DNA from: Catajapyx aquilonaris
Lineage: Eukaryota
Assembly (NCBI GenBank): GCA_000934665.2
Contig: JYFJ02001345.1
Coordinates: 1-64,000 of the forward strand
Length of the DNA: 64,000 nucleotides
Direction: 5' to 3'
The notes under the pieces were generated by a model. The model had not been told where the DNA came from and ran no database searches. It saw only the letters and a list, made by a program, of their open reading frames with translations. Of this stretch, positions 25,001-64,000 are shown in pieces; the stretch's first letter is position 1, and every line of letters begins with the position of its first letter. A program made the translations under genes and the position numbers.

Positions 25001-25882
25001 TGGGGGAGTTTGATGTGTAGTATGTCAGCGATACAACTCCATGCATGAAAATTGGACACTGAATGATAAATAGCATGCTCAGGGCCTGCACTGAATCAGT
25101 GGGATTACTGAAGCAAAGGAAGTCCCTCAAATCTTTGCTTCAGTAATCCCATTGATTCTTATGTGGGGAATAATACCATTCATGCACACTTGGAGTAATT
25201 CCCTTTCTTGAGGAGCTGCATGTGGCATGTGTGCTAAGTATGTTGCATTTCCTATAATACTGGTAATCAGAGTACACAATCAGAGATTTTCTCATTAAGT
25301 CATACAATCGGCTCCTAGTATGCCTAGGACATTCAGTTACTATTGTAAAATTGCATTGTATTGTGAAATTCAGGGTGCCATCGAAGGTGACAATTAAATT
25401 GTAATGATTATTAAGTTTAAGTGATAGACCGTGCACTAAAAAGGTGTAAAAGTTTAGGTGGGCAGTCAGTACACTACCAATCCAACAAGGAGCTAATTGG
25501 TCTCACTTGTCTGTTTGGTGGCCATCTACCAGCAAACTTTTAAAAATGTCAAAAATGGCCCAGGTTAGGCTGAAGGTCAAGCAGGTGGAAGCTCGCTGAA
25601 GCTAGCCCTAACTTAAAAAATAAGAGTTATCAATTCTTTTGTGTGCAAGTTTCCTTATGGATTGAGTGAACAGGTTAATTAGGTAAACATAAACCTGAGA
25701 GTGAAGTTTATGATATGGGATAAACAGTATGAGTACGTGCATAAACAGCACATGTTATGTTAATGGTCATTTGAATTTGATGGGGATACGTTAATGGAAG
25801 AATAAGAAAATAATTTATGTTAGTGTATCATCAGATACCCTGTACAGATTGCAAAAATTTGAATTCTCTCGTAGGCTGAGTG

Positions 25883-41300: not shown

Positions 41301-44300
41301 TTATATAATCATGCAGATTATGAATACTATAGTAATGTGTACTCACCTCATGGCAACGTTACTTCCATCAACGACGATAGGCCTGAGCTGACCAGCACTG
41401 TCTGAAACCACTGATGGTATCGCTGACGGAGCAGTGACAACAGTTGGAACCAACACACTGGAAACACTTGATCCTCCAGAAGAAGCATTGCTTCCTCCAG
41501 AGCTAAGGTCCCTCCGTAGAACGGATGCACTAGTCACAGCTGCCTCTGGGCACAGGTCGGCCCTGTCAGCACCAGTGGATGCACCGCAAGTTGACGAAGA
41601 AGATGACGAAACACCAGGCACAGTACAAGTAGAGGGGAGGGTAGAAGGCTGCTGGGACAAGGGAGGAAGCTGAACGGACTCACTCTTCCCGACACTAATC
41701 AGTTCTAAGGGCTTGCTATGAGCCCCTAATTTAATAAGCTCGGCCAACAGTTCATTCTGTCCAGGACAAGGCCCCAGCTTCCTTAGTGCCACTTGCACTT
41801 GCTGTTCGGTGTATCCCAGCTTCAGAGCAAATTCAACCCGTGCATTATACTGCGGGTCGTCCAACACAGTCCTGAGGCTGAATGTGGAGGAGTCACTAGA
41901 ACACTGTCCCAGTTGGTCACACACATCCACACCGGACGACACATACTCTGCAAACTCCGCACCGAGGGTGTCAGAAACAGTCCGACTAACATCATCGTGC
42001 TCTCCGCTTCCGAGCTGCTTCGGTTGGTGCGGGCAGCTGGGGGACACCTCTGAATTGTCAAAGTCCGAATCATAACTAGAATCTTCAGACTCCAGCTTCC
42101 GCCTGAAGCTGGCCTTGGCAGCCGCTGAAGTCAGGGAGCAACCAGTTGTCGACCAGCTACTACTGCTGTCTTCTCCGCTCAGATGGGTACGAGGCTCCAG
42201 ATCGCCAGACTGTACCGGTACGAGAAAAATACATATCTTCATAATTTCATTGGGAATGAAAATGCAGTAGCACATGCAACGATCCTGACCTGTGAGTGTG
42301 TCACAAGCTGGTGCCTCTGTTGTTGGTCCCCATCGGCCAGCTTCTGCAGTAGAGCAAGTGCTTGGGCCACGCACTGTGCTTTTCCTGAGACCAACACGGT
42401 GAAGCTGCTGGGCTGGAAGCTAAGCACCGCACAGGAGCTCCTCTCCACGTGGTCCCTCTGACGAAGCACCCTCTCGTATGCGTCTCTTGGGTACGAGCAA
42501 GTCCGCAAGCACTTCTCAGCATACGGAGCGCACAGGGACTCCACATATTGCTGCAAGAAGATACACACGTCCTTCTCAAAAACTCGTGACCAATTTTGCC
42601 TTCACCAATACACCACCCTTGCCCACAAGAATGAAGGCGACCTTGATGTTCTGTCTACTAGTGGGTGCTTCACCACCTGCCCTTTTTTCGCAACTTTCAT
42701 AATATTACATCCGGATTTGTTTCAAACCATGGAAAGTCCTCCTTGGTCCAATCCAGGTCACTGAGGCACAGCTGCCGGATCCGCACGCGACCAAAGGTGA
42801 ATCAAATACCGGGTCGGGGCCTTCTTCTTCTTCTTCTTTTTCTCGAGGGGGGTTTGACTCCTTCCTCACCTGGATAGAGTTGGCCCGTGGACAGACAGGA
42901 TGTATCTCTCCTAGCCTACTTCCTCAGCTTTCACACGGAACTCTCCTAACCCAACCAGCCCGTGACCTATACGCTTCCACGCCGTATCTACAGAAAACCA
43001 AATTCACTTACGGAAGCACAAGCGACATACCGTGCCTGGCAGGGCCGGACCGGCAGGAATTCGCCCACAATTTCGCTCCCGGCAGGAATTCGCCCACAAT
43101 TTCGGTCCCGGCAATAATTCGCCAAAAATTTCGGTCCCGGCAGGAATTTGCCCACAATCCCGGCAATAATTCGCCAAAAATTTCGGTCCCGGCAGGAATT
43201 TGCCCACAATCCCGGCAATAATTCGCCCAAAATTTCGGTCCTGGCAGGAATTCGCCCACAATCCCGGCAATAATTCGCCCCCAATCCCGGCAATAATTCG
43301 CCCAAAATTTCGGTCCTGGCAGGAATTCGCCCACAATCCCGGCAATAATTCGCCCAAAATTTCGCTCCCGACCTATTTTAAAACTCAAGAAGGACCGAGG
43401 ACACCATGCTCCTTTGTGTTGGCAGTACCCCCATCAAGCTACTGATTGCCCCGTAATGGCATACCATACGAATCATTGGCGCCCAGCTGGGGGTTGCCCT
43501 GAAGGAGTCACGAAGAGGGTGAAATTGGAGGATCCGGACGGCCAGTGGGTGGAACTTCCGTTTCGTGACCAAAGGATCCTAGGAGGCCATTCGCAGGCCA
43601 CGTGTTGCTCCGGGCGGTTCCGGCAAAGTCAGTACACTACCAGCCCATAGGGACAAGACCCACACATTGTGGCCTTCACTACTATTTATAGTCTAGCATC
43701 GGATCCTTGAAAATCCGGGCGCGATAGAAAGTGTACATAAGAGAACACCCACCAGATGCCCAAATCGTAACCAATCTGGGTCAAAGTCAACCATGTGATT
43801 GGCTGGGCCCCTATCCAGGGCATCGTTGAAGTTAACCCCCGCACTTGGCTCAGATCCATCCAGCTTCAGGAAATATTTTGCTATGTCCCCCATCCCCAAA
43901 AAAATTTCGCCAAAAAAAAAAACACACAATGGCCGCCAATAAATCAATGCCAATTGCCGCAGTGGGGTCCCCCCTGCAAAAATGGGGAAGAGAGAAAACG
44001 ATGCCACCTATGCAGGTAATACGGATGCAGTTTCTAATGCCCCACATTCGCTGGGAAAAACCAGCCGAAAAAGGTTTTAATAACGCGGAAGTATCCTTCG
44101 ATTTGTATGTTAAAAGTGGAGGAGGATGTCATGGCCACCGGATTCGAGCCCACGCATTATAGCCCTTCCAATACCTTCAGCCAGTACCCAGATGACAAGA
44201 GGCACAGTCAATTATATGTACAGGATGAACCTGTCCGAAGCGGTCCACCGTAGGCCGCAAGCCTAGAAATCATTTGTCGATGTGCCAAGTTTCTCTCAGA

Positions 44301-46710: not shown

Positions 46711-47315
46711 CGCCCAGTCCAAGCTGGGGGCCACTCTCACCTGTCACAACCCGACTCCATCTTGAGTGCTCAATGTTCTTCTCCCTTTTCCTTTTCCTTC
46801 CTTTCCTTCTGAGGACCTGCTACCCCCACCTCCACCTCACAACTGCACCTCCTCCACTTGACATATAGAGAGGGTAGGTGGCGACCTACATAGCGGCCGT
46901 TCCAGTAACCCACAGTTTGAATTCCCACACGAAGGTGGCAGCACCTGCTTATAAGCTACCAGCTCTACAACAGCGACGTTGGATTCGGCCCCCGTCTGAT
47001 TTCCAAGATGGCGCTGACTATTTTCACTACTTTTTTAATTGTTTTTTTGGGGGGTTTTGCCACCCCCCTCTCTAGGTACTCCGGGTGCACGACTGCGCAA
47101 GGGCAGGTCCTTTTGCGCCTGGATGTGCGCAGCCAGCTGACCAGATGTCAACATCGCTGGATGCTGCTCTCATCCGAGGTAACAACCTTGACACCTTCAT
47201 GTGGATGGACCTGCTGGGGTTCTTGTAAGGTATGGTGCAAAGTACTTGTATGTTCACATCTGTGCAGTACCAAGATGATAAAGCGGTTCATTGCAGGACT
47301 ACACTCCGCTGAACA

Positions 47316-49115
47316 ATGTCGTGGGCGCAAGACTTCCTGGAGCTGCTTCTATGGCAAGCGGCACTCCTCTTCCGGCTGTGGCTGGATGGCCTGGCCCATG
47401 TGCTGTGCGGCCTGGCTCAGCTGTTCTCCTCACATCGGACACTTCCGGCGCCCCGTAACCCCATTGTCTGCCAGAGTGCGTCTGTGTTGGCGCGTAAGAT
47501 TGCACGGAAGGAGGTCACGTCTGAGGATGTGGTGTATGCATTCATGGAGCGTATTGGGGAGGTGAATTTAGCCCTGAATTGTGTGGTGGATCAGCGCTTT
47601 ACTGAGGCTCTGCGGGAGGCACGCAAGATCGATGCCTTCCTTTCTGAGCTGGGTCCTGAGGAAGGGGATGTCCTGCGGAAGGAGAAGCCCTTACTGGGTG
47701 TCCCGTTCACTGTGAAGGAGAGCATTTGTGTCAAAGGCCTGACCCACAGCTGTGGATTGGCTTGCCGTTCACAGTTGCGGGCTGCAGAAAATGCAGAGGT
47801 GGTTACACTGCTGAGGAGGGCTGGGGGCATCCCACTGGCCACCACAAATCTTTCGGAGCTGGGAATGTGGTATGAATGTGCCAATCCTGTTTATGGGCGT
47901 ACCAACAATCCTTACCACCTGGGGAAGACACCTGGGGGATCATCTGGAGGAGAGGCGTGTCTGCAGGCTGCCTGTGGATCTCCGTTAGGTGTGGGTACAG
48001 ACATAGGGGGATCCATTCGGATACCTGCCGCCTTCTGTGGAACCTTTGGACATAAGCCCACCCCTGGTGAGTTTCAAAGGAGCTGAAAAATGCTGTTTAT
48101 CACATACGGTTTCTTGTATTGTAGGTGTGGTGTCCATAGTGGGCACGGGCCCCCACAAGCTGGAATCTGGTGCTTCGGCAGGAATGCTGGTGGCAGGCCC
48201 CATTGCCAAGCATGTGGAGGATGTGGCTCTAGCACTGCAGATAATGGCAGGTCCCCAGTCACACATGCTGCAGCTGGAGCGGGATGTGGACATCAGGGGG
48301 CTGGTGGCCTGCTACATGGAGGATGACGGCCGGTGCCCACTCGTCAGCAGGCTCTCCCCATCGCTGAGAGAAGTCATGAGAAAGGTAGTGCGCCACCTGG
48401 GAGACGAGTGCGGGATGCCTGTACGCCAGGTCCAGCTGGAGGGGATGAGAAAAGCAATCCAGCTGTGGTTCTCCAGGCTGAGGGCCAATCATGTTGGGCC
48501 CAGCTTTTCAGAGGAGCTCACCAACAGGAAGGCTAGTTTCAGCACATTATTATGCAATTCAAGTTAAATAACACTAGTCTTATCCAAACAGGGTCCAATC
48601 AGCGCAAAACGAGAGCTGCTCAAATGGCTGTGTGGACGATCGCAGCATACCCTGGCAGCCCTGGGGTTTTCCCTAATGGACCAGATGGACGCAGGGTCCC
48701 TTCTACAGCGCCTGGCACCTTTGCCTGAGGATGAGCTGCGGAACCTAAGGCAAGAGATGCAGGTGAGAGCCCCTTTCTAAGTTCTTTACCCTGTCTGCTT
48801 GACCCACTCCAACTGACTGGAACCCTGTGACAGGACACACTGGGTGACAATGGCGTGCTGTTGTACCCATCCCATCCGACAACAGCACCATTCCATGGCG
48901 AAGCGCTGTTTAAGCCGTTTAACTTTGCCTATACTGCCGTTTTCAACTTGTTGGACATGCCTGCGACTCAGGTTCCACTTGGACTTGACTCCAAAGGCCT
49001 GTCCTATGGGATACAAGTTGCCGCTGCCCCGTTCAACGATCATCTGACAATTGCTGTGGCGAAGGAGCTGTCCAAGGCGTTTGGCGGGTGGGTTCCGCCT
49101 TTTCCAACCACTTGA
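47316..49115 (+). CDS. FAAH2: Fatty-acid amide hydrolase 2 (amidase signature family)
   Basis: Exons 47316-48066, 48125-48531 (GC donor), 48592-48762, 48834-49115. Catalytic-triad motifs GVPFTVKE, GGSSGGE and GTDIGGSIR are present, plus YTAVFNLL.MPATQVPLG and C-terminal FGGW.PP. Confidence 0.93.
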
Positions 49116-50818
49116 AGGAGGGTTGAGTGCTGCGCTTTGCCTACAACCTGTCCAGAAGGGCAATCCCCGAGATAAATCCCCTCCCCGTGTACAATGCTGT
49201 ACTGCTCAGGAATTGCTGTAAAGTCATGCCCATTGCAGGGGAATAGGAGTTGTTGATGGTACAGTGTTAGAGGTGGATAAGTGTGCTTGTTTCAATGCTG
49301 GGGAGAAAAAAGTGTTCATCCAGTTAGTTCCACATTGCTATTTATTTCCAACCATGTATATTACTTGAGAGTACATCAGTGCTCATGTCCTGAGCATAGC
49401 AGAATGTATCTCAATTAAATGTGTTACATTCCATAAACCCACAAGACTGTAATGAAAACCCCAGACTAAAACTTACGGAGCTTAAATGTATATTATGTAA
49501 AATAATAATAAAACAAGTTACTGTAATCCAACTACGTGCCTAATACGTGGCAAATACTACTCAATACCCCCATTCCTTGGTAAAATGGTAAGTAAATTGG
49601 TGCTCGTATCCAAAAAACGACGGCTATTAAAAGTTATCTGAATACACCTTGGGACGCTGACAATTCCCAAGGCAACGCAATGGCAATTATCTCCGCTGTT
49701 GTCAAACTGCCACTGGAACAAATGCTGTGAACAAGTACACGTTGCCTATAGACATGGAACACGACATATTTCCGGACAAAATTGGGATTGAAAAATCTCT
49801 GCTGTTCTCCACAGCATGAACCTAAGGCCCACCCTAGCAATACTGATTGCAGTTTTTGCCCCGATCTTGGAAGTTAAAGATGCGCTTAAGTGTCACTATG
49901 CAAGTGTCCACATTTTTAAAACTATTCTCCGATGCTTCTTGCCACATGATGCTTGAACCATAACTGGAACCACTCGGTGTGAATCACAAATTAAATGCTC
50001 ACAGTACACCCTGAAGACGTAAAACTGGTCCAGGAAAATGGGAGTGACAAAACACTGCAGTTGGAATGTGGCAAACACAATTAATACCACCAGGATCTGG
50101 AATCACGGCTTTGCTTCCCCTGAGAGGCTTTTCAATAGTGGGTGGAACCACCAAAGATGGAAAAACAAAGCCGCAGGAACAAGACATCGATGGAAAATCA
50201 AAACGATTGACACCAGACCTCCATTTAAAACCGGTATTTCTTTTGATCGCTGGAATTAAAAATTCCAAATGCCAACAACTGGCTATGACTATTCAGGCAT
50301 AAGATCTCATTTTTTGGGCATTCCTGCACCCTGCCCCTCCCACTCCCCGACAAGTTTCAAGGGAGATGGTGGAGAGGGTTTAGGAAAGAAACCCATCCTG
50401 GAGGAGGAGGAGATGCCCTAAGCTTGCTGGTTTCTTTTATTTCGGAAAGAGCGTCAGGCCACCCTCATATGTGAGCCTGACGATCGACCGAATGAACTGG
50501 ATCCAGCTCTAGACACACCTTTCCTTTAACGGTTGTTGATTTTTTAAAACTTCTTCAGAGCAAAGAAACACTAAGCGCAAGGGCAATGGGCTCAAGATAT
50601 CTTGCTCCTCCACCAGGAGAAACGGAGACTGCAGCTCAGATGGCACAAGTGGACACCTATGAGGAAGGACATCTCGGCGGGGATTACACCTGTTGAGAAC
50701 AGCAGAGGGATTCCGCAGGACCTCCCTGGTGCGAGGTCCGCTGATACAGTCCAATTGTTGGGAGGGAGAGGAGAGTAGGGTAGTGCTGAAGGAGAGGGGG
50801 AGGGGATGGGGAGGGGAA

Positions 50819-50894
50819 GGGAAGAGGACCCCCACGCACAGTGCTGAGCTGTCACCGAAGTGAGCTCAGATCTGCTGCAGGGCTCCCTTATCCC
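50819..50894 (-). other. Predicted RNA stem-loop with cUUCGg tetraloop directly 3' of the AMD1 stop codon
   Basis: Core CTGAGC-TCAC-TTCG-GTGA-(CA)-GCTCAG, extended by imperfect pairing out to GGGA.../...TCCC. Confidence 0.65.
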
Positions 50895-53800
50895 TCAGCT
50901 GGGGAACTTGGTGTACAGCGCGTACACCAGGTCGTAATTCTTGAAGCGGCAGTACTGGCTGTCACGCATCACCCAATCTCCAAAGGACTGGGTCTTCTGC
51001 ATCTCTCTCTGGGACTTGATTGCAACTGAAGCCTAGAATTTTCAAAAGAGTTGGTTTAGAACATGTGTAAATTTTTGCTGGTGGGATTAATATTTTGTAG
51101 CTAAACTGTACCTTGTTGGCAAAGATGGTAAGGATAAATTTTCCAGGCTGGAACGTGTCGAGCACACGGGCAATCACTTCCTTGTACGAAGACTGAGGGA
51201 TGTTGCTCTCAAAGCTCACGTAAGAGAAATCTGGCTCAGGAGTGACGTGGATTGTCATATAGCAGCCCTACGAGAAATGAAAAAAAGTTTCAGTCCCACT
51301 GCCTCTTCTTTCAGATATCCATGCAACAACAACGGAACTTGTGCCAATTTATTATGTTGTAAGCAGGGGGGTTATTTAGTCACTGGCAAGTTAACAAGGT
51401 CTAACTGTTGGCATGAAGTATCAACCTAGAGCAAGTTCGGCAACCTTGAAGCATCACGCAGCAAAGCAGGAGTGATCTATCAGCAGTAGCTGTTATCTGC
51501 ACTAAACAACATTTCTGTTATTCAAATCCCTGCACAGGTCAGACCTCTCTTAGCAGGTGACAATTTTGAGGAAAGCTGCTACTACGGCCACTGCATAGCA
51601 TAAGAAAAGTGCAAAGCAAGGTTACAGTGTCGTGCAACAGCATTTGTCACAAATCCCGCTACTCACCGTTCCTGTGTCAAGATCAACCTGAAATGCGAGG
51701 GATAGTATCAAATTTCACTCTCACGTCTCACCAATTACAAAAGCCCCAAAAGCAAGAACTTAACATTACTTTCCTGCTAAACAACCGTGACCAAAACTAC
51801 AACCCATGAAGCAACCATTAAATTTTTTCAAGTTGTATGAAATGTTCCCGGTCATACGTTATCAGCCCTGGCCTTCAAATTCTGAAGGCTTTGCTAGGAC
51901 AGTAAGTTATCTTGGAATCTTTGTCATATAATGCCTGTAATGACTGGCATGTTCATTGTGATTCTACTTGACATTGATAATGGTAGAATGCTGAGCTACT
52001 TGTATTTTTTATGTGGAAATAAGAGACCTACTTATTTCTCAGCTGTAAGAATAGCAATAGTTTATTCCAGTACAGGGGGTATGGCATTACTTCCAGTTTT
52101 AACGAACAATTGTCATCTTGAAAAATAAGCTGCAACGTACCGGTGTCGGACAAGATTAAAATGAGCTAATGTTCCTTGAACCCCCCACCCTGTATTTATT
52201 GAAAAGTGGAAAAATTCCAACTCTCTTATGAATATATTTTCATCTGAGTTTCACGTGACGTTATGAACTTCCATTAAAAATTATGCTGTTTGGAAGAGAA
52301 AAAAATCCAGGAATCCATTTCTTGACTAAACTACATCATATAAAATTACTGAAATGCTTATGTCAGGGGACCAAACGGAACTTTTGTAACAGAAAAGTTT
52401 CCTCTATAATATATTATCCAGAGCCTTATTTCAATGTAACTGCTGGTCATCCCCGCTGCTTATACATGTACTTTTTACTACTGAAAGAACATAATTATGA
52501 TGACCCACAGTTCTGCCAGGTATTCAACACACTACTATGTGTCACAGACAACAGAAGAATTCAAACCTGGAATTCCTCTCAAAGGTATTTCCCTTCAAGC
52601 TAATTCAAGGTGACTGTCTTGCCTGTTACCCATCAACAAGTTAAAACAAAACTGCTGTTTTGCGCTGCACTTTCAGCTTGGAATGGGACATCTCAATTAG
52701 GTCCCTATCGGAAAGGAACATGTAACCCCCCAAGGGACTGTCAATCAGTCACGGATACCCTAATCCATTTGCTACAACAAAAACCCATTGCCATCGATTC
52801 CACTAATGCCATGCTGGTAATCAATCCTCATCCAATAATCATGGTAACAATCTTCTTGTCAAGGCAAGCTGCAATTCCTCCCATTTAACCTAGTAATCCC
52901 TCAGTTTCTAACAGGTACTTACATTCTTGAGAATACCATTCATGGAGTAACCACAGGGGTCAAACAGGTAATCATCTATCACCACATTGGGCAAGATGCG
53001 ATCTATCCCTGATTTCTGCAAACAATGAAGAGAGTCATGAGGATATGATAAGCTTTAAATTGCTTCAAATTTCACTCAGTCGTACCTCAGTGGCTTCCGC
53101 AGCAGTCTTGCATGCCTCCTTGCTGAATACTTTCATTGCTTCTGGATCCAGATCTGTCATGAGGATCTCAATAGTCTGATCCGGCTCGTCGATGCCAAAA
53201 TGAGTGTGTACCAGCCCCTTGTTGTTGTTGCACGGCTCCGTCAGCGGATTCAGAGTGTACAGGTACCAACAGTCCCGGTTCACAGAGCCCAAGCAATAGG
53301 CAGCACCATCTGAAAAACAAGACAATTTTTACATCATTTCCATTCACAAGCATGCATTTCGACAAATTATCACACATCACTTGTTGCATAAGTTTCGTAA
53401 CATTGTAAGAGTTTGTCTGGGGAACTCATTAAATCCAAAGATAAGATTATTTTGGTCCCTCCAAGATTTGAACTGGACTCCTAGCAAACACTTCATCACA
53501 TTAGAGATAAGTCCTCCAAAAAGAAAGGCAGATATCTTGTATCCAGGGCTGGCATGAGGAAATTGGGTTCAAAGTGCCATGCCACCCATGGCTTGGATAC
53601 AGGAGAGCTAATCCATTCAAGGCTGTTCCTCCATGGAAATAATTACTTTACACCAAACTACATGTTCACACTGTGTGAAGCTGATTCACACCAAATAACA
53701 TGCTGTATTCCTCATTGTTTATCTTTCACTCTTGTCACCACCAGAATGACCTGCATATAACTTGACAACGGTGGCCTAATTGTCACAATTTATAAGTACC

Positions 53801-63081: not shown

Positions 63082-63599
63082 TGAACATTTCACATTCTGA
63101 ATCGATCCCAACAATTTCCATGACGCAACCGAGGAAGGGTGGGTTCACCCCCTCAAAAAAAAAAAATGACACCTGGCAAGGTACACCCAATGCCATAAAA
63201 TATTAATTTGACATTGGGTGTACCTTGGCAGAAAAATTTCCGAAACAATGTTCCCTGCCCCAGTGTTACCTCCTGAAACTTTGCAAGCACCTCAATCGCA
63301 AGGCCCTAAAAATATTTTGGCTCTAGGACCAGGACCCAGCTGCCTTTTCAACCTCTCCCCACACCCACAACCCACAAAACCCGAACCCTGCCAAGAAGTC
63401 TGTGCGTAAGGGGAAAAGAAAGAAAGAAAGAAAAAAAAAATTGACATGGGCGCCCAGGTGACGTTACTCGACAAGGGCGGGCGTGGTCATGAAATAATTC
63501 GCGGAATTCAACTCACACAATGTATGCAAAATTGTCGCCAAATTGGTCCAACGCAATACCCTAAAGAGCAGTGAAATTGACATTTATTTTTTAAATTAA

Positions 63600-63940
63600 A
63601 TAAATGAAACTAAATCAAAAACCCTCGCTTCACTCACATTTCTCTAGGGGCCGCCTTTTCTAGTTAGGTCAATTTTGTTAATTTTTATTATGGTAGTGAA
63701 ATAAATGAAATCAAAAACCCACGCTTCGCTCCCCCTTTTCTATTGGGCTTACGCTTTTCCAAGTTAATTTTGTTAATTTTGATTACTTAAAATTTAAGTA
63801 ATCAAAGTTAACAAATTGAACTAGAAAAAGCGCAAGCCCAATAGAAAAGGGGGAGCGAAGCGAGGGTTTTTGATTTGATTGATTTAAGACTGAAATCAAA
63901 TCAAAAATCCTCGCTTCGCTCACATTTTTCTATTGAACGC
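63600..63940. repeat. Foldback-type modular repeat with a ~165-bp palindrome
   Basis: Unit AAATCAAAAA(C/T)CC(T/A)CGCTTCGCTC recurs at ~63612, ~63708 and ~63898, and inverted at ~63853-63876. The arms pair around the centre ACTTAAAATTTAAGT (~63790). Confidence 0.75.
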
Positions 63941-64000
63941 AGGCCTGGAAACTCCCTCCCTTTTTCTAGTTAAATATTTATTACCTAAATCAACTTCGCT

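Follow-up and report, generated by a model that had tools for sequence, protein, structure and literature searches.

The window analysed here is a stretch of 64,000 nucleotides from Catajapyx aquilonaris (assembly GCA_000934665.2, contig JYFJ02001345.1, positions 1 to 64,000), and its reverse strand carries the gene for S-adenosylmethionine decarboxylase, AMD1. The AMD1 reading frame ends at a UGA, stays open for 100 further codons and closes on a second UGA. In arthropod relatives the corresponding tail is likewise kept open in the AMD1 frame, and it ends directly before its second stop on a peptide that is conserved at the amino acid level. These observations suggest that some ribosomes read through the AMD1 stop, and they raise the possibility that the terminal peptide arrests them at the second one. 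The elements in question, all on the reverse strand, are as follows:

51267-51112 and 51032-50898 (-), last two exons of AMD1, from translation and spliced RNA contigs
50898..51032 (-), terminal coding exon of AMD1, from translation, with the splice joint 51031/51111 in an RNA contig
50909..50929 (-), 8-bp hairpin within the coding sequence, stem UGGUGUAC/GUACACCA, predicted, -13.1 kcal/mol
50894..50897 (-), first stop of AMD1, UGA at 50897-50895, with its invariant +4 G at 50894
50819..50894 (-), 76-nt hairpin directly 3' of the stop, minimum free energy -40.9 kcal/mol, z -3.53
50595..50894 (-), in-frame, stop-free tail of 100 codons, from translation, unspliced in an RNA contig
50595..50630 (-), conserved terminal peptide, the last 12 codons, SLRFSWWRSKIS, a candidate arrest or C-terminal signal motif conserved in 14 sequences
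50592..50594 (-), second stop, UGA and then G, from translation

The enzyme encoded upstream of the tail is closest to other arthropod AMD1 proteins, at 68% to those of Gryllus and Periplaneta over one exon and 63-70% to those of named insects over all exons. Its C-terminus reads ...YALYTKFPS and is followed by TGA, the last two codons (CCC AGC, 50903-50898) giving a Pro-Ser-stop ending. The same PS ending is found in 67 of the 120 arthropod AMD1 proteins listed, the remaining 53 being 52 fragments or broken models and one tail-bearing gene model, P0080. A [KR]FPS end is seen in all ten arthropod AMD1 proteins printed, and a [KR][FY]PS end in all 17 of the metagenome loci described below. Since these endings recur throughout arthropod AMD1, the UGA is the authentic and conserved end of the enzyme. 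Pro-Ser-stop closes the main open reading frame (ORF) of every full-length arthropod AMD1 seen, with AGC as the final Ser codon in 11 of 15 representatives.

The tail is also part of the transcript. The sole public run covering the stretch (X1) is of unrecorded kind, and its contigs are spliced and RNA-derived; parts of the gene free of contigs are uninformative. An X1 contig runs unbroken from 48831 to 51031 and is then spliced over the 51031/51111 intron, and this continuity together with the splice places the tail, unspliced, in the mature mRNA. An AAUAAA hexamer at 50436-50441 (-), some 150 nt past the tail stop, could be a proximal poly(A) signal; the RNA contig continues beyond it.

The tail runs from GIREPCSRS... 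to ...LRFSWWRSKIS, with a low-complexity, pyrimidine-rich middle and a hydrophobic C-terminal third. An earlier note on this DNA, made from the sequence alone, had reported the AMD1 stop as a UGA at 50897-50895 (-) with G at +4, and past it a frame open for exactly 100 codons to a stop at 50594-50592 with a hydrophobic end, all of which is present as described. It had also reported a second open frame, which exists but measures 118 codons from stop to stop (50865-50509) and not the ~108 given there. In dinucleotide shuffles, the AMD1 frame stays open for at least 100 codons in 2.6-5.5% of cases (P about 0.03-0.055), an open frame being frequent because the region is A-poor (17% A). Judged by the window sequence alone, neither the open frame nor the hairpin is compelling, and the two rise only weakly beyond chance. 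The tail peptide had no match at E up to 10 among 5.8 billion proteins (near lengths), and none among PDB chains.

An alignment of 12 AMD1 proteins from arthropods, used as the query against metagenome contigs, returned 44 loci, 17 of which hold the AMD1 C-terminus (12 on intron-free, mRNA-like contigs and five genomic). By similarity to named proteins, the loci include a cladoceran-like group (66-81% to Daphnia), a springtail-like group (74-76% to Folsomia), one locus at 72% to termite and cockroach proteins, a group with RFPS endings and one locus near nothing named. TGA followed by G is found in 17/17 loci and in the window. The AMD1 frame has no stop in any of the 15 complete tails, and the remaining two tails, L002 and L004, run off their contigs still open. 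The AMD1 3' regions of relatives, a comparison proposed by the earlier note, thus keep both the UGA (17/17) and the frame (15/15). The complete tails measure 29, 43, 74, 97, 104, 106, 128, 130, 130, 131, 133, 134, 137, 173 and 309 codons.

The absence of stops is specific to the AMD1 frame. Stops were counted in 13 distinct tails with 1,564 codons, after dropping L007 and L014 (near-identical to L006), L039 (which has the L038 tail) and the cut L002 and L004. The three frames hold 0, 54 and 66 stops; with an even spread, the probability of all 120 stops missing the AMD1 frame would be (2/3)^120 = 7e-22, a binomial value that overstates independence given the ancestry shared within groups. Several tails are A-poor. 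Others are AT-rich, such as L001, with 309 open codons in the AMD1 frame and 23 stops in each of the other two, and L016, with 173 open codons and with 10 and 11 stops elsewhere. These AT-rich tails are decisive on their own for the preservation of the frame. The tail middles are unalignable low complexity of widely differing lengths, so many insertions and deletions must have kept the frame. An independent AUG-started ORF is excluded in L003, L011 and L017, whose tails are without any Met. We further note that the mRNA-like contigs of L008 and L010 end 5 and 3 nt past the second stop, which may be an accident of assembly, a real 3' end or cleavage near a stall site.

The window tail and all 15 complete tails close on a motif of roughly L-F-x-W-W-R-x-K-I-S-stop, 14 loci ending in K/R/E-I-S and one in K-V-S; it is shared by AMD1 genes of cladoceran-like to insect-like kind. 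The tail endings are:

Window: LRFSWWRSKIS
Cladoceran-like loci: LVLFCWWRTKIS
Springtail-like loci: HFIWWRDKIS, DFICWKDKIS
RFPS group: TA[RK]WRSKIS, TTKWRSKIS
L008: LFVWYRDEIS
L011: IYSYWPSRIS
L003: LLFAWWQYKVS

Across 14 sequences, the Ser at -1 is kept in 14, the Ile at -2 in 13, the Lys at -3 in 12, the Arg at -5 in 11, the Trp at -6 in 13 and the Phe at -9 in 10, and the consensus reads S(-14), [LV](-11), L(-10), F(-9), W(-7), W(-6), R(-5), [STD](-4), K(-3), I(-2), S(-1). A regular expression for the motif gives 16 matches over both strands of the 44 loci, all of them at tail ends. The codons of the motif vary synonymously (Arg AGG/AGA/CGA/CGG, Ile ATA/ATT/ATC, Ser TCT/TCC). Over the last 12 codons, four cladoceran-like loci differ by 24 synonymous and 0 nonsynonymous changes, and over the 12 codons past the second stop the same four loci differ by 2 synonymous and 36 nonsynonymous changes. 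Relatives use either TGA or TAG as the second stop, and beyond it the sequence is unconserved. Judged by these substitutions, selection acts on the tail end, the last 10-14 residues, at the level of the peptide.

The same ending is found in annotated proteins. Gene model P0080 of the ground beetle Carabus blaptoides (S-adenosylmethionine decarboxylase, 504 residues) departs from the normal C-terminus just before KFPS, enters the tail and ends in ...LLFSWWRNKIS; BLASTP aligns the window tail with this end at 14/31 identities (E 2e-4). Among 1.84 billion representative proteins, a profile made from 11 tail ends matched seven: five more AMD1 tails and two repeat proteins that are unrelated. Of the five, three (P0241, P0242 and P0243) were called with TGA as Trp, in the form ...KFPS-W-....

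The region around the first stop can also fold. Bases 50897-50819 (79 nt counted from the stop) form a single hairpin with a C(UUCG)G cap (loop 50859-50856), the main stem of which starts 7 nt past the UGA. A hairpin of ~76 nt with this cap had been described in the earlier note, and its folding was reproduced at the energy and z-score given above. One of 200 shuffles is equally stable; in a ranking of the 12,784 80-nt windows on the two strands of the whole 64 kb the hairpin comes 41st, and after correction for GC content 65 windows score as low. The 8-bp hairpin just upstream of the stop, described in the same place, is likewise predicted at 50929-50909. Its stem is found in one of 15 sequences, that of the window, the other 14 giving 0 to -7.8 kcal/mol, and it is lineage-specific and probably incidental.

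Folding of the post-stop region in 11 loci gave z-scores from -2.8 to +1.4 overall, with -2.8 to -0.9 for five cladoceran-like loci and -2.0 for L016; the window (100 nt) has -2.4. Next to the stop, the six cladoceran-like loci have in common a strongly conserved block with a possible CCCAGA/UCUGGG stem and an apical part that varies in length. Each group keeps something beside its stop, which fits a readthrough signal. An Rfam match to Hsp83_3_UTR over the hairpin and pyrimidine tract (50771-50896 (-), 23.8 bits against a gathering threshold of 90, E 4.4e-4) was set aside as probably an effect of composition. Elsewhere in the window, at 60111-60190, 63841-63930 and 25081-25170, lie the 80-nt segments that fold most stably (-42 to -50 kcal/mol); they are long perfect inverted repeats, two of the three within or beside the AMD1 gene region.

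Taken together, conserved stop, open frame and terminal peptide suggest programmed readthrough into a drifting spacer, followed by a conserved peptide that would arrest the ribosome at the second stop, and we give this explanation as a whole a probability of about 0.6. Some ribosomes would decode the conserved UGA-G after the invariant ...F-P-S ending and translate a spacer free to drift in length and sequence (29-309 codons in relatives, 100 here). Translation would then close on [LV]-L-F-x-W-W-R-x-K-I-S right before the second stop, where the terminal peptide, lying in the exit tunnel, would obstruct termination and limit further use of the mRNA. In the window lineage, the 76-nt hairpin may raise the level of readthrough. 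The steps differ in how well they stand. That a fraction of ribosomes reads through the AMD1 UGA is very probable from the comparison of relatives. That the terminal peptide acts from within the exit tunnel to impede termination at the second stop, a step suggested by analogy, has about even odds or slightly better. A sensitivity to polyamines or to eIF5A through the Pro-Ser-stop ending, also suggested by analogy, is conjectural and on balance unlikely.

Vertebrate AMD1 provides a precedent for this arrangement. In Maldosevic et al. 2026 (PMC13025110), the vertebrate protein is given a 127-residue C-terminal tail that stalls ribosomes at its stop, and tail and stalling are called universally conserved across vertebrates. 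The human arrest residues named there are F111, L112, Q113, V114, K117, H120, R121, Q122, F124, R125 and the final H127, and the arrest features include an FRK clamp (K117, R121, F124) and an Arg125 hook (PMC13025110). The arthropod tail is alike in that it belongs to the same gene, lies directly past the main stop, in frame and stop-free, and has its conservation concentrated at the end abutting the second stop. Like the human tail, it has a basic residue at -3, where the arginine hook lies in humans, as well as a cluster of aromatic and basic residues. Unlike the vertebrate tail, with its 127 codons in the human description, arthropod tails span 29-309 codons, and the arthropod main ORF ends in Pro-Ser, unlike that of vertebrate AMD1; stalling in arthropods is a prediction from sequence. 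The ribosome-queue model for the AMD1 tail is disputed. The earlier note had called the element convergent with or ancestral to the vertebrate tail: the architecture is shared, the peptides are not alignable, and 'convergent or diverged beyond recognition' is the wording that fits.

A partial precedent is also found among insects. Row 270 of Supplementary Data S1 of Jungreis 2016 (PMC5100048) names the SamDC ortholog of Anopheles gambiae, AGAP009619-RA, among its readthrough candidates, giving it 268 codons and the stop context TGA-G. AGAP009619 is classed there as clade-specific ('Comparison'), with Drosophila SamDC-RA as non-readthrough (PMC5100048), and the row itself is silent about a terminal motif, about conservation outside mosquitoes and about any tie to the vertebrate AMD1 tail. 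The AMD1 tail resembles the pancrustacean readthrough genes found with PhyloCSF (Jungreis et al. 2011, 2016) in its conserved TGA and in a coding signature that extends to the following in-frame stop; unlike the entries as that catalogue presents them, its coding constraint is limited to the tail end. SamDC is unmentioned in two small supplement files of Dunn 2013 and in the main text of a 2026 preprint on Drosophila readthrough. No paper on an invertebrate AMD1 tail was found in the literature searched, in which only the Anopheles supplement row bears on it, the 2018 Nature paper (Yordanova et al.) being outside that search. The architecture is known from vertebrate AMD1, and the terminal peptide of the arthropod version appears to be new, provided that the 2018 paper or specialists have not covered it.

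The explanation that competes best with readthrough and arrest accepts the readthrough and lets the tail end act on the released protein, as a degron, a membrane or targeting signal, or an inhibitory appendage of AMD1. The motif does lie at the extreme C-terminus with hydrophobic residues before it, the spacer has the low complexity of a disordered stretch, and a basic residue at -3 together with a hydrophobic stretch is typical of C-terminal signals. Conservation, however, is limited to the last ~10-14 residues, the very stretch found in the upper part of the exit tunnel once the stop has entered the A site. The tenfold range of spacer lengths would be odd for a folded appendage, and arrest by a tail has its vertebrate precedent in the same gene family. 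We regard a role of the released protein as unlikely, though it deserves serious consideration.

Alternative splicing that removes the stop and joins the tail to AMD1 is suggested by P0080, which swaps ...YSKFPS-stop for a junction into the tail. Splicing would tolerate stops and frameshifts before the acceptor, but no tail has an in-frame stop from the first base past the UGA onwards, and the unspliced form is carried by 12 mRNA-like contigs and the X1 contig. The P0080 junction itself looks like a predictor's detour round the stop, and we consider splicing improbable. An element acting at the level of RNA, for instance a site for a protein or a microRNA, would suit a short block in a region annotated as 3' untranslated region (3'UTR), but the Arg, Ile and Ser codons of the block vary while the amino acids stay constant, and the block is always in the AMD1 frame and always abuts a stop; this reading is very improbable. 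Even less credible is an ordinary 3'UTR with a frame left open by A-poor composition and an incidental hairpin. It draws on the single-sequence P of 0.03-0.055, the second frame open for 118 codons and the A-poor tails, and it is contradicted by the frame-specific absence of stops (0/54/66), which includes the AT-rich L001 and L016, and by a conserved terminal peptide with changes of synonymous type. Selenocysteine at the UGA, with a constitutive tail, would agree with the invariant use of UGA, but most of the tail evolves without constraint and an Rfam scan of 47400-51100 at E up to 1 returned no selenocysteine insertion sequence (SECIS), only two unrelated sub-threshold matches, which leaves this reading next to no credence.

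Several points weigh against readthrough and arrest, or against parts of it. The only run covering the stretch, X1, consists of RNA contigs and not ribosome footprints, and a motif placed at the very end of the protein might just as well serve, after release, as a degron or a targeting signal. The arthropod W-W-R-x-K-I-S is not alignable with the human arrest peptide, and the FRK clamp, the Arg125 hook and the 127-residue length are unmatched; the tail-end profile found nothing related among PDB chains, where it gave three chance matches (E 2-7). The Drosophila melanogaster ortholog is listed as non-readthrough in the supplement cited above, which would make the device dispensable in some lineages. 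The shared ancestry within groups tempers the stop statistics, as noted with the count. The G at +4 is not the classical leaky context, a caveat already raised in the earlier note; the base is as stated there, and it is invariant in 17/17 loci and the window.

The remaining points concern the hairpin. L038, L017, L008, L002 and L001 fold no better past the stop than shuffles (z -0.1 to +1.4), and 0 of 18 predicted pairs in the six cladoceran-like loci are compensatory. A covariance model (R1) built from the stop-proximal element of these six loci matches only its six training loci, and neither the window hairpin nor other lineages. A weak R1 match elsewhere in the window (43711-43762, E 0.14) was taken as chance, and a MAFFT alignment of the window hairpin with the cladoceran elements left the stems out of register. 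Readthrough driven by a 3' stem-loop is known from alphaviruses and from Drosophila headcase, where the stem lies about 8 nt past the stop. The window is alike in its very stable stem-loop 7 nt past the UGA, and the cladoceran-like loci in their possible stem; it is unlike these systems in that the +4 base is G and not C, no compensatory change is seen and the structure goes undetected across lineages.

Of the readthrough and stalling system proposed in the earlier note, a frame beyond chance and a conserved terminal peptide thus stand, and stimulation by hairpins goes unsupported, with the upstream stem in one of 15 sequences, R1 blind to the window hairpin, no compensatory pair and z-scores up to +1.4. 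Because no close relative of the window species was compared, the window hairpin as a readthrough signal is neither established nor refuted. That this hairpin, 7 nt past the UGA, boosts readthrough in its own lineage is conceivable but doubtful.

Other mRNAs of the polyamine pathway offer further comparisons. The MAGDIS upstream open reading frame (uORF) of vertebrate AMD1 is given the ending -I-S-stop (PMC13025110), and termination at the MLLLPS-stop uORF of yeast HOL1 depends on eIF5A and is inhibited by high polyamines, according to a secondary account (PMC10855120). The arthropod tail ends in Ile-Ser-stop, as MAGDIS does, and the arthropod main ORF in Pro-Ser-stop, as does the HOL1 uORF. 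These are two-residue resemblances only, and they lie at the ends of a main ORF and of a 3' tail, unlike those of the two uORFs. Among 11 mRNA-like leaders of arthropod AMD1 (L001-L011; 108-333 nt available), nine have no upstream AUG, and uORFs of 4 and 16 codons occur in L001 and L002; no MAGDIS-like uORF was found in the 11. With nine of 11 leaders free of an upstream AUG, control of the MAGDIS type appears to be missing, which could leave the 3' device as the chief brake on translation. AMD1 readthrough and arrest might be a feedback device of early-bilaterian age or one that arose twice. In arthropods, a Pro-Ser-UGA-G sensitive to polyamines or eIF5A would, at high polyamine, let more ribosomes pass into the tail, leading to a jam at W-W-R-x-K-I-S and to shutdown of the mRNA. 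This extension is speculative, and we hold it to be rather improbable.

Some further features of the locus are recorded here. A FAAH2-like amidase gene (relatives in Pfam PF01425) lies at 47313-49118 (+), convergent with AMD1, with introns of 58-71 nt and its stop at 49116-49118; its identity is 54-59% to decapods, insects and even frogs. Taken with the AMD1 identities, this places the window no more narrowly than 'arthropod-like'. The 3' ends of the two genes abut or overlap, since one RNA contig extends from the amidase gene to the 3'UTR of AMD1. The Exocentrus adspersus model P0086 fuses amidase and S-adenosylmethionine decarboxylase domains, which hints at an old neighbourhood or at confusion of the gene predictor. 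The AMD1 introns hold long trinucleotide microsatellites (58780-58943, 63021-63089 and 54819-54859), which were passed over as repeats during contig placement, and the first AMD1 exon was not located within 61801-64000. The X1 contigs differ from the window by a 3-nt insertion (CAT) behind 59654 and by T>C at 52291, both at low depth, which may be alleles or errors.

The tail accounts for several odd gene models, such as the stop-skipping Carabus model and the ORFs with TGA read as Trp, and ORFs of the P0241, P0242 and P0243 type in public protein collections are a ready source of further tails. Vertebrate AMD1 is, in the account of PMC13025110, the one vertebrate gene with structurally worked-out readthrough and stalling, described there as a vertebrate feature. 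An arthropod AMD1 tail with a different terminal peptide means that the combination of a tail and an end peptide is under selection on this gene far outside the vertebrates as well. It adds another candidate arrest peptide, unrelated to the first, that can be compared with it in structure and biochemistry. Pro-Ser-stop and Ile-Ser-stop would be two short candidate polyamine sensors. If the proposed arrest is true, the tenfold range of natural tail lengths (29-309 codons) would provide a ready-made test of the disputed queue model.

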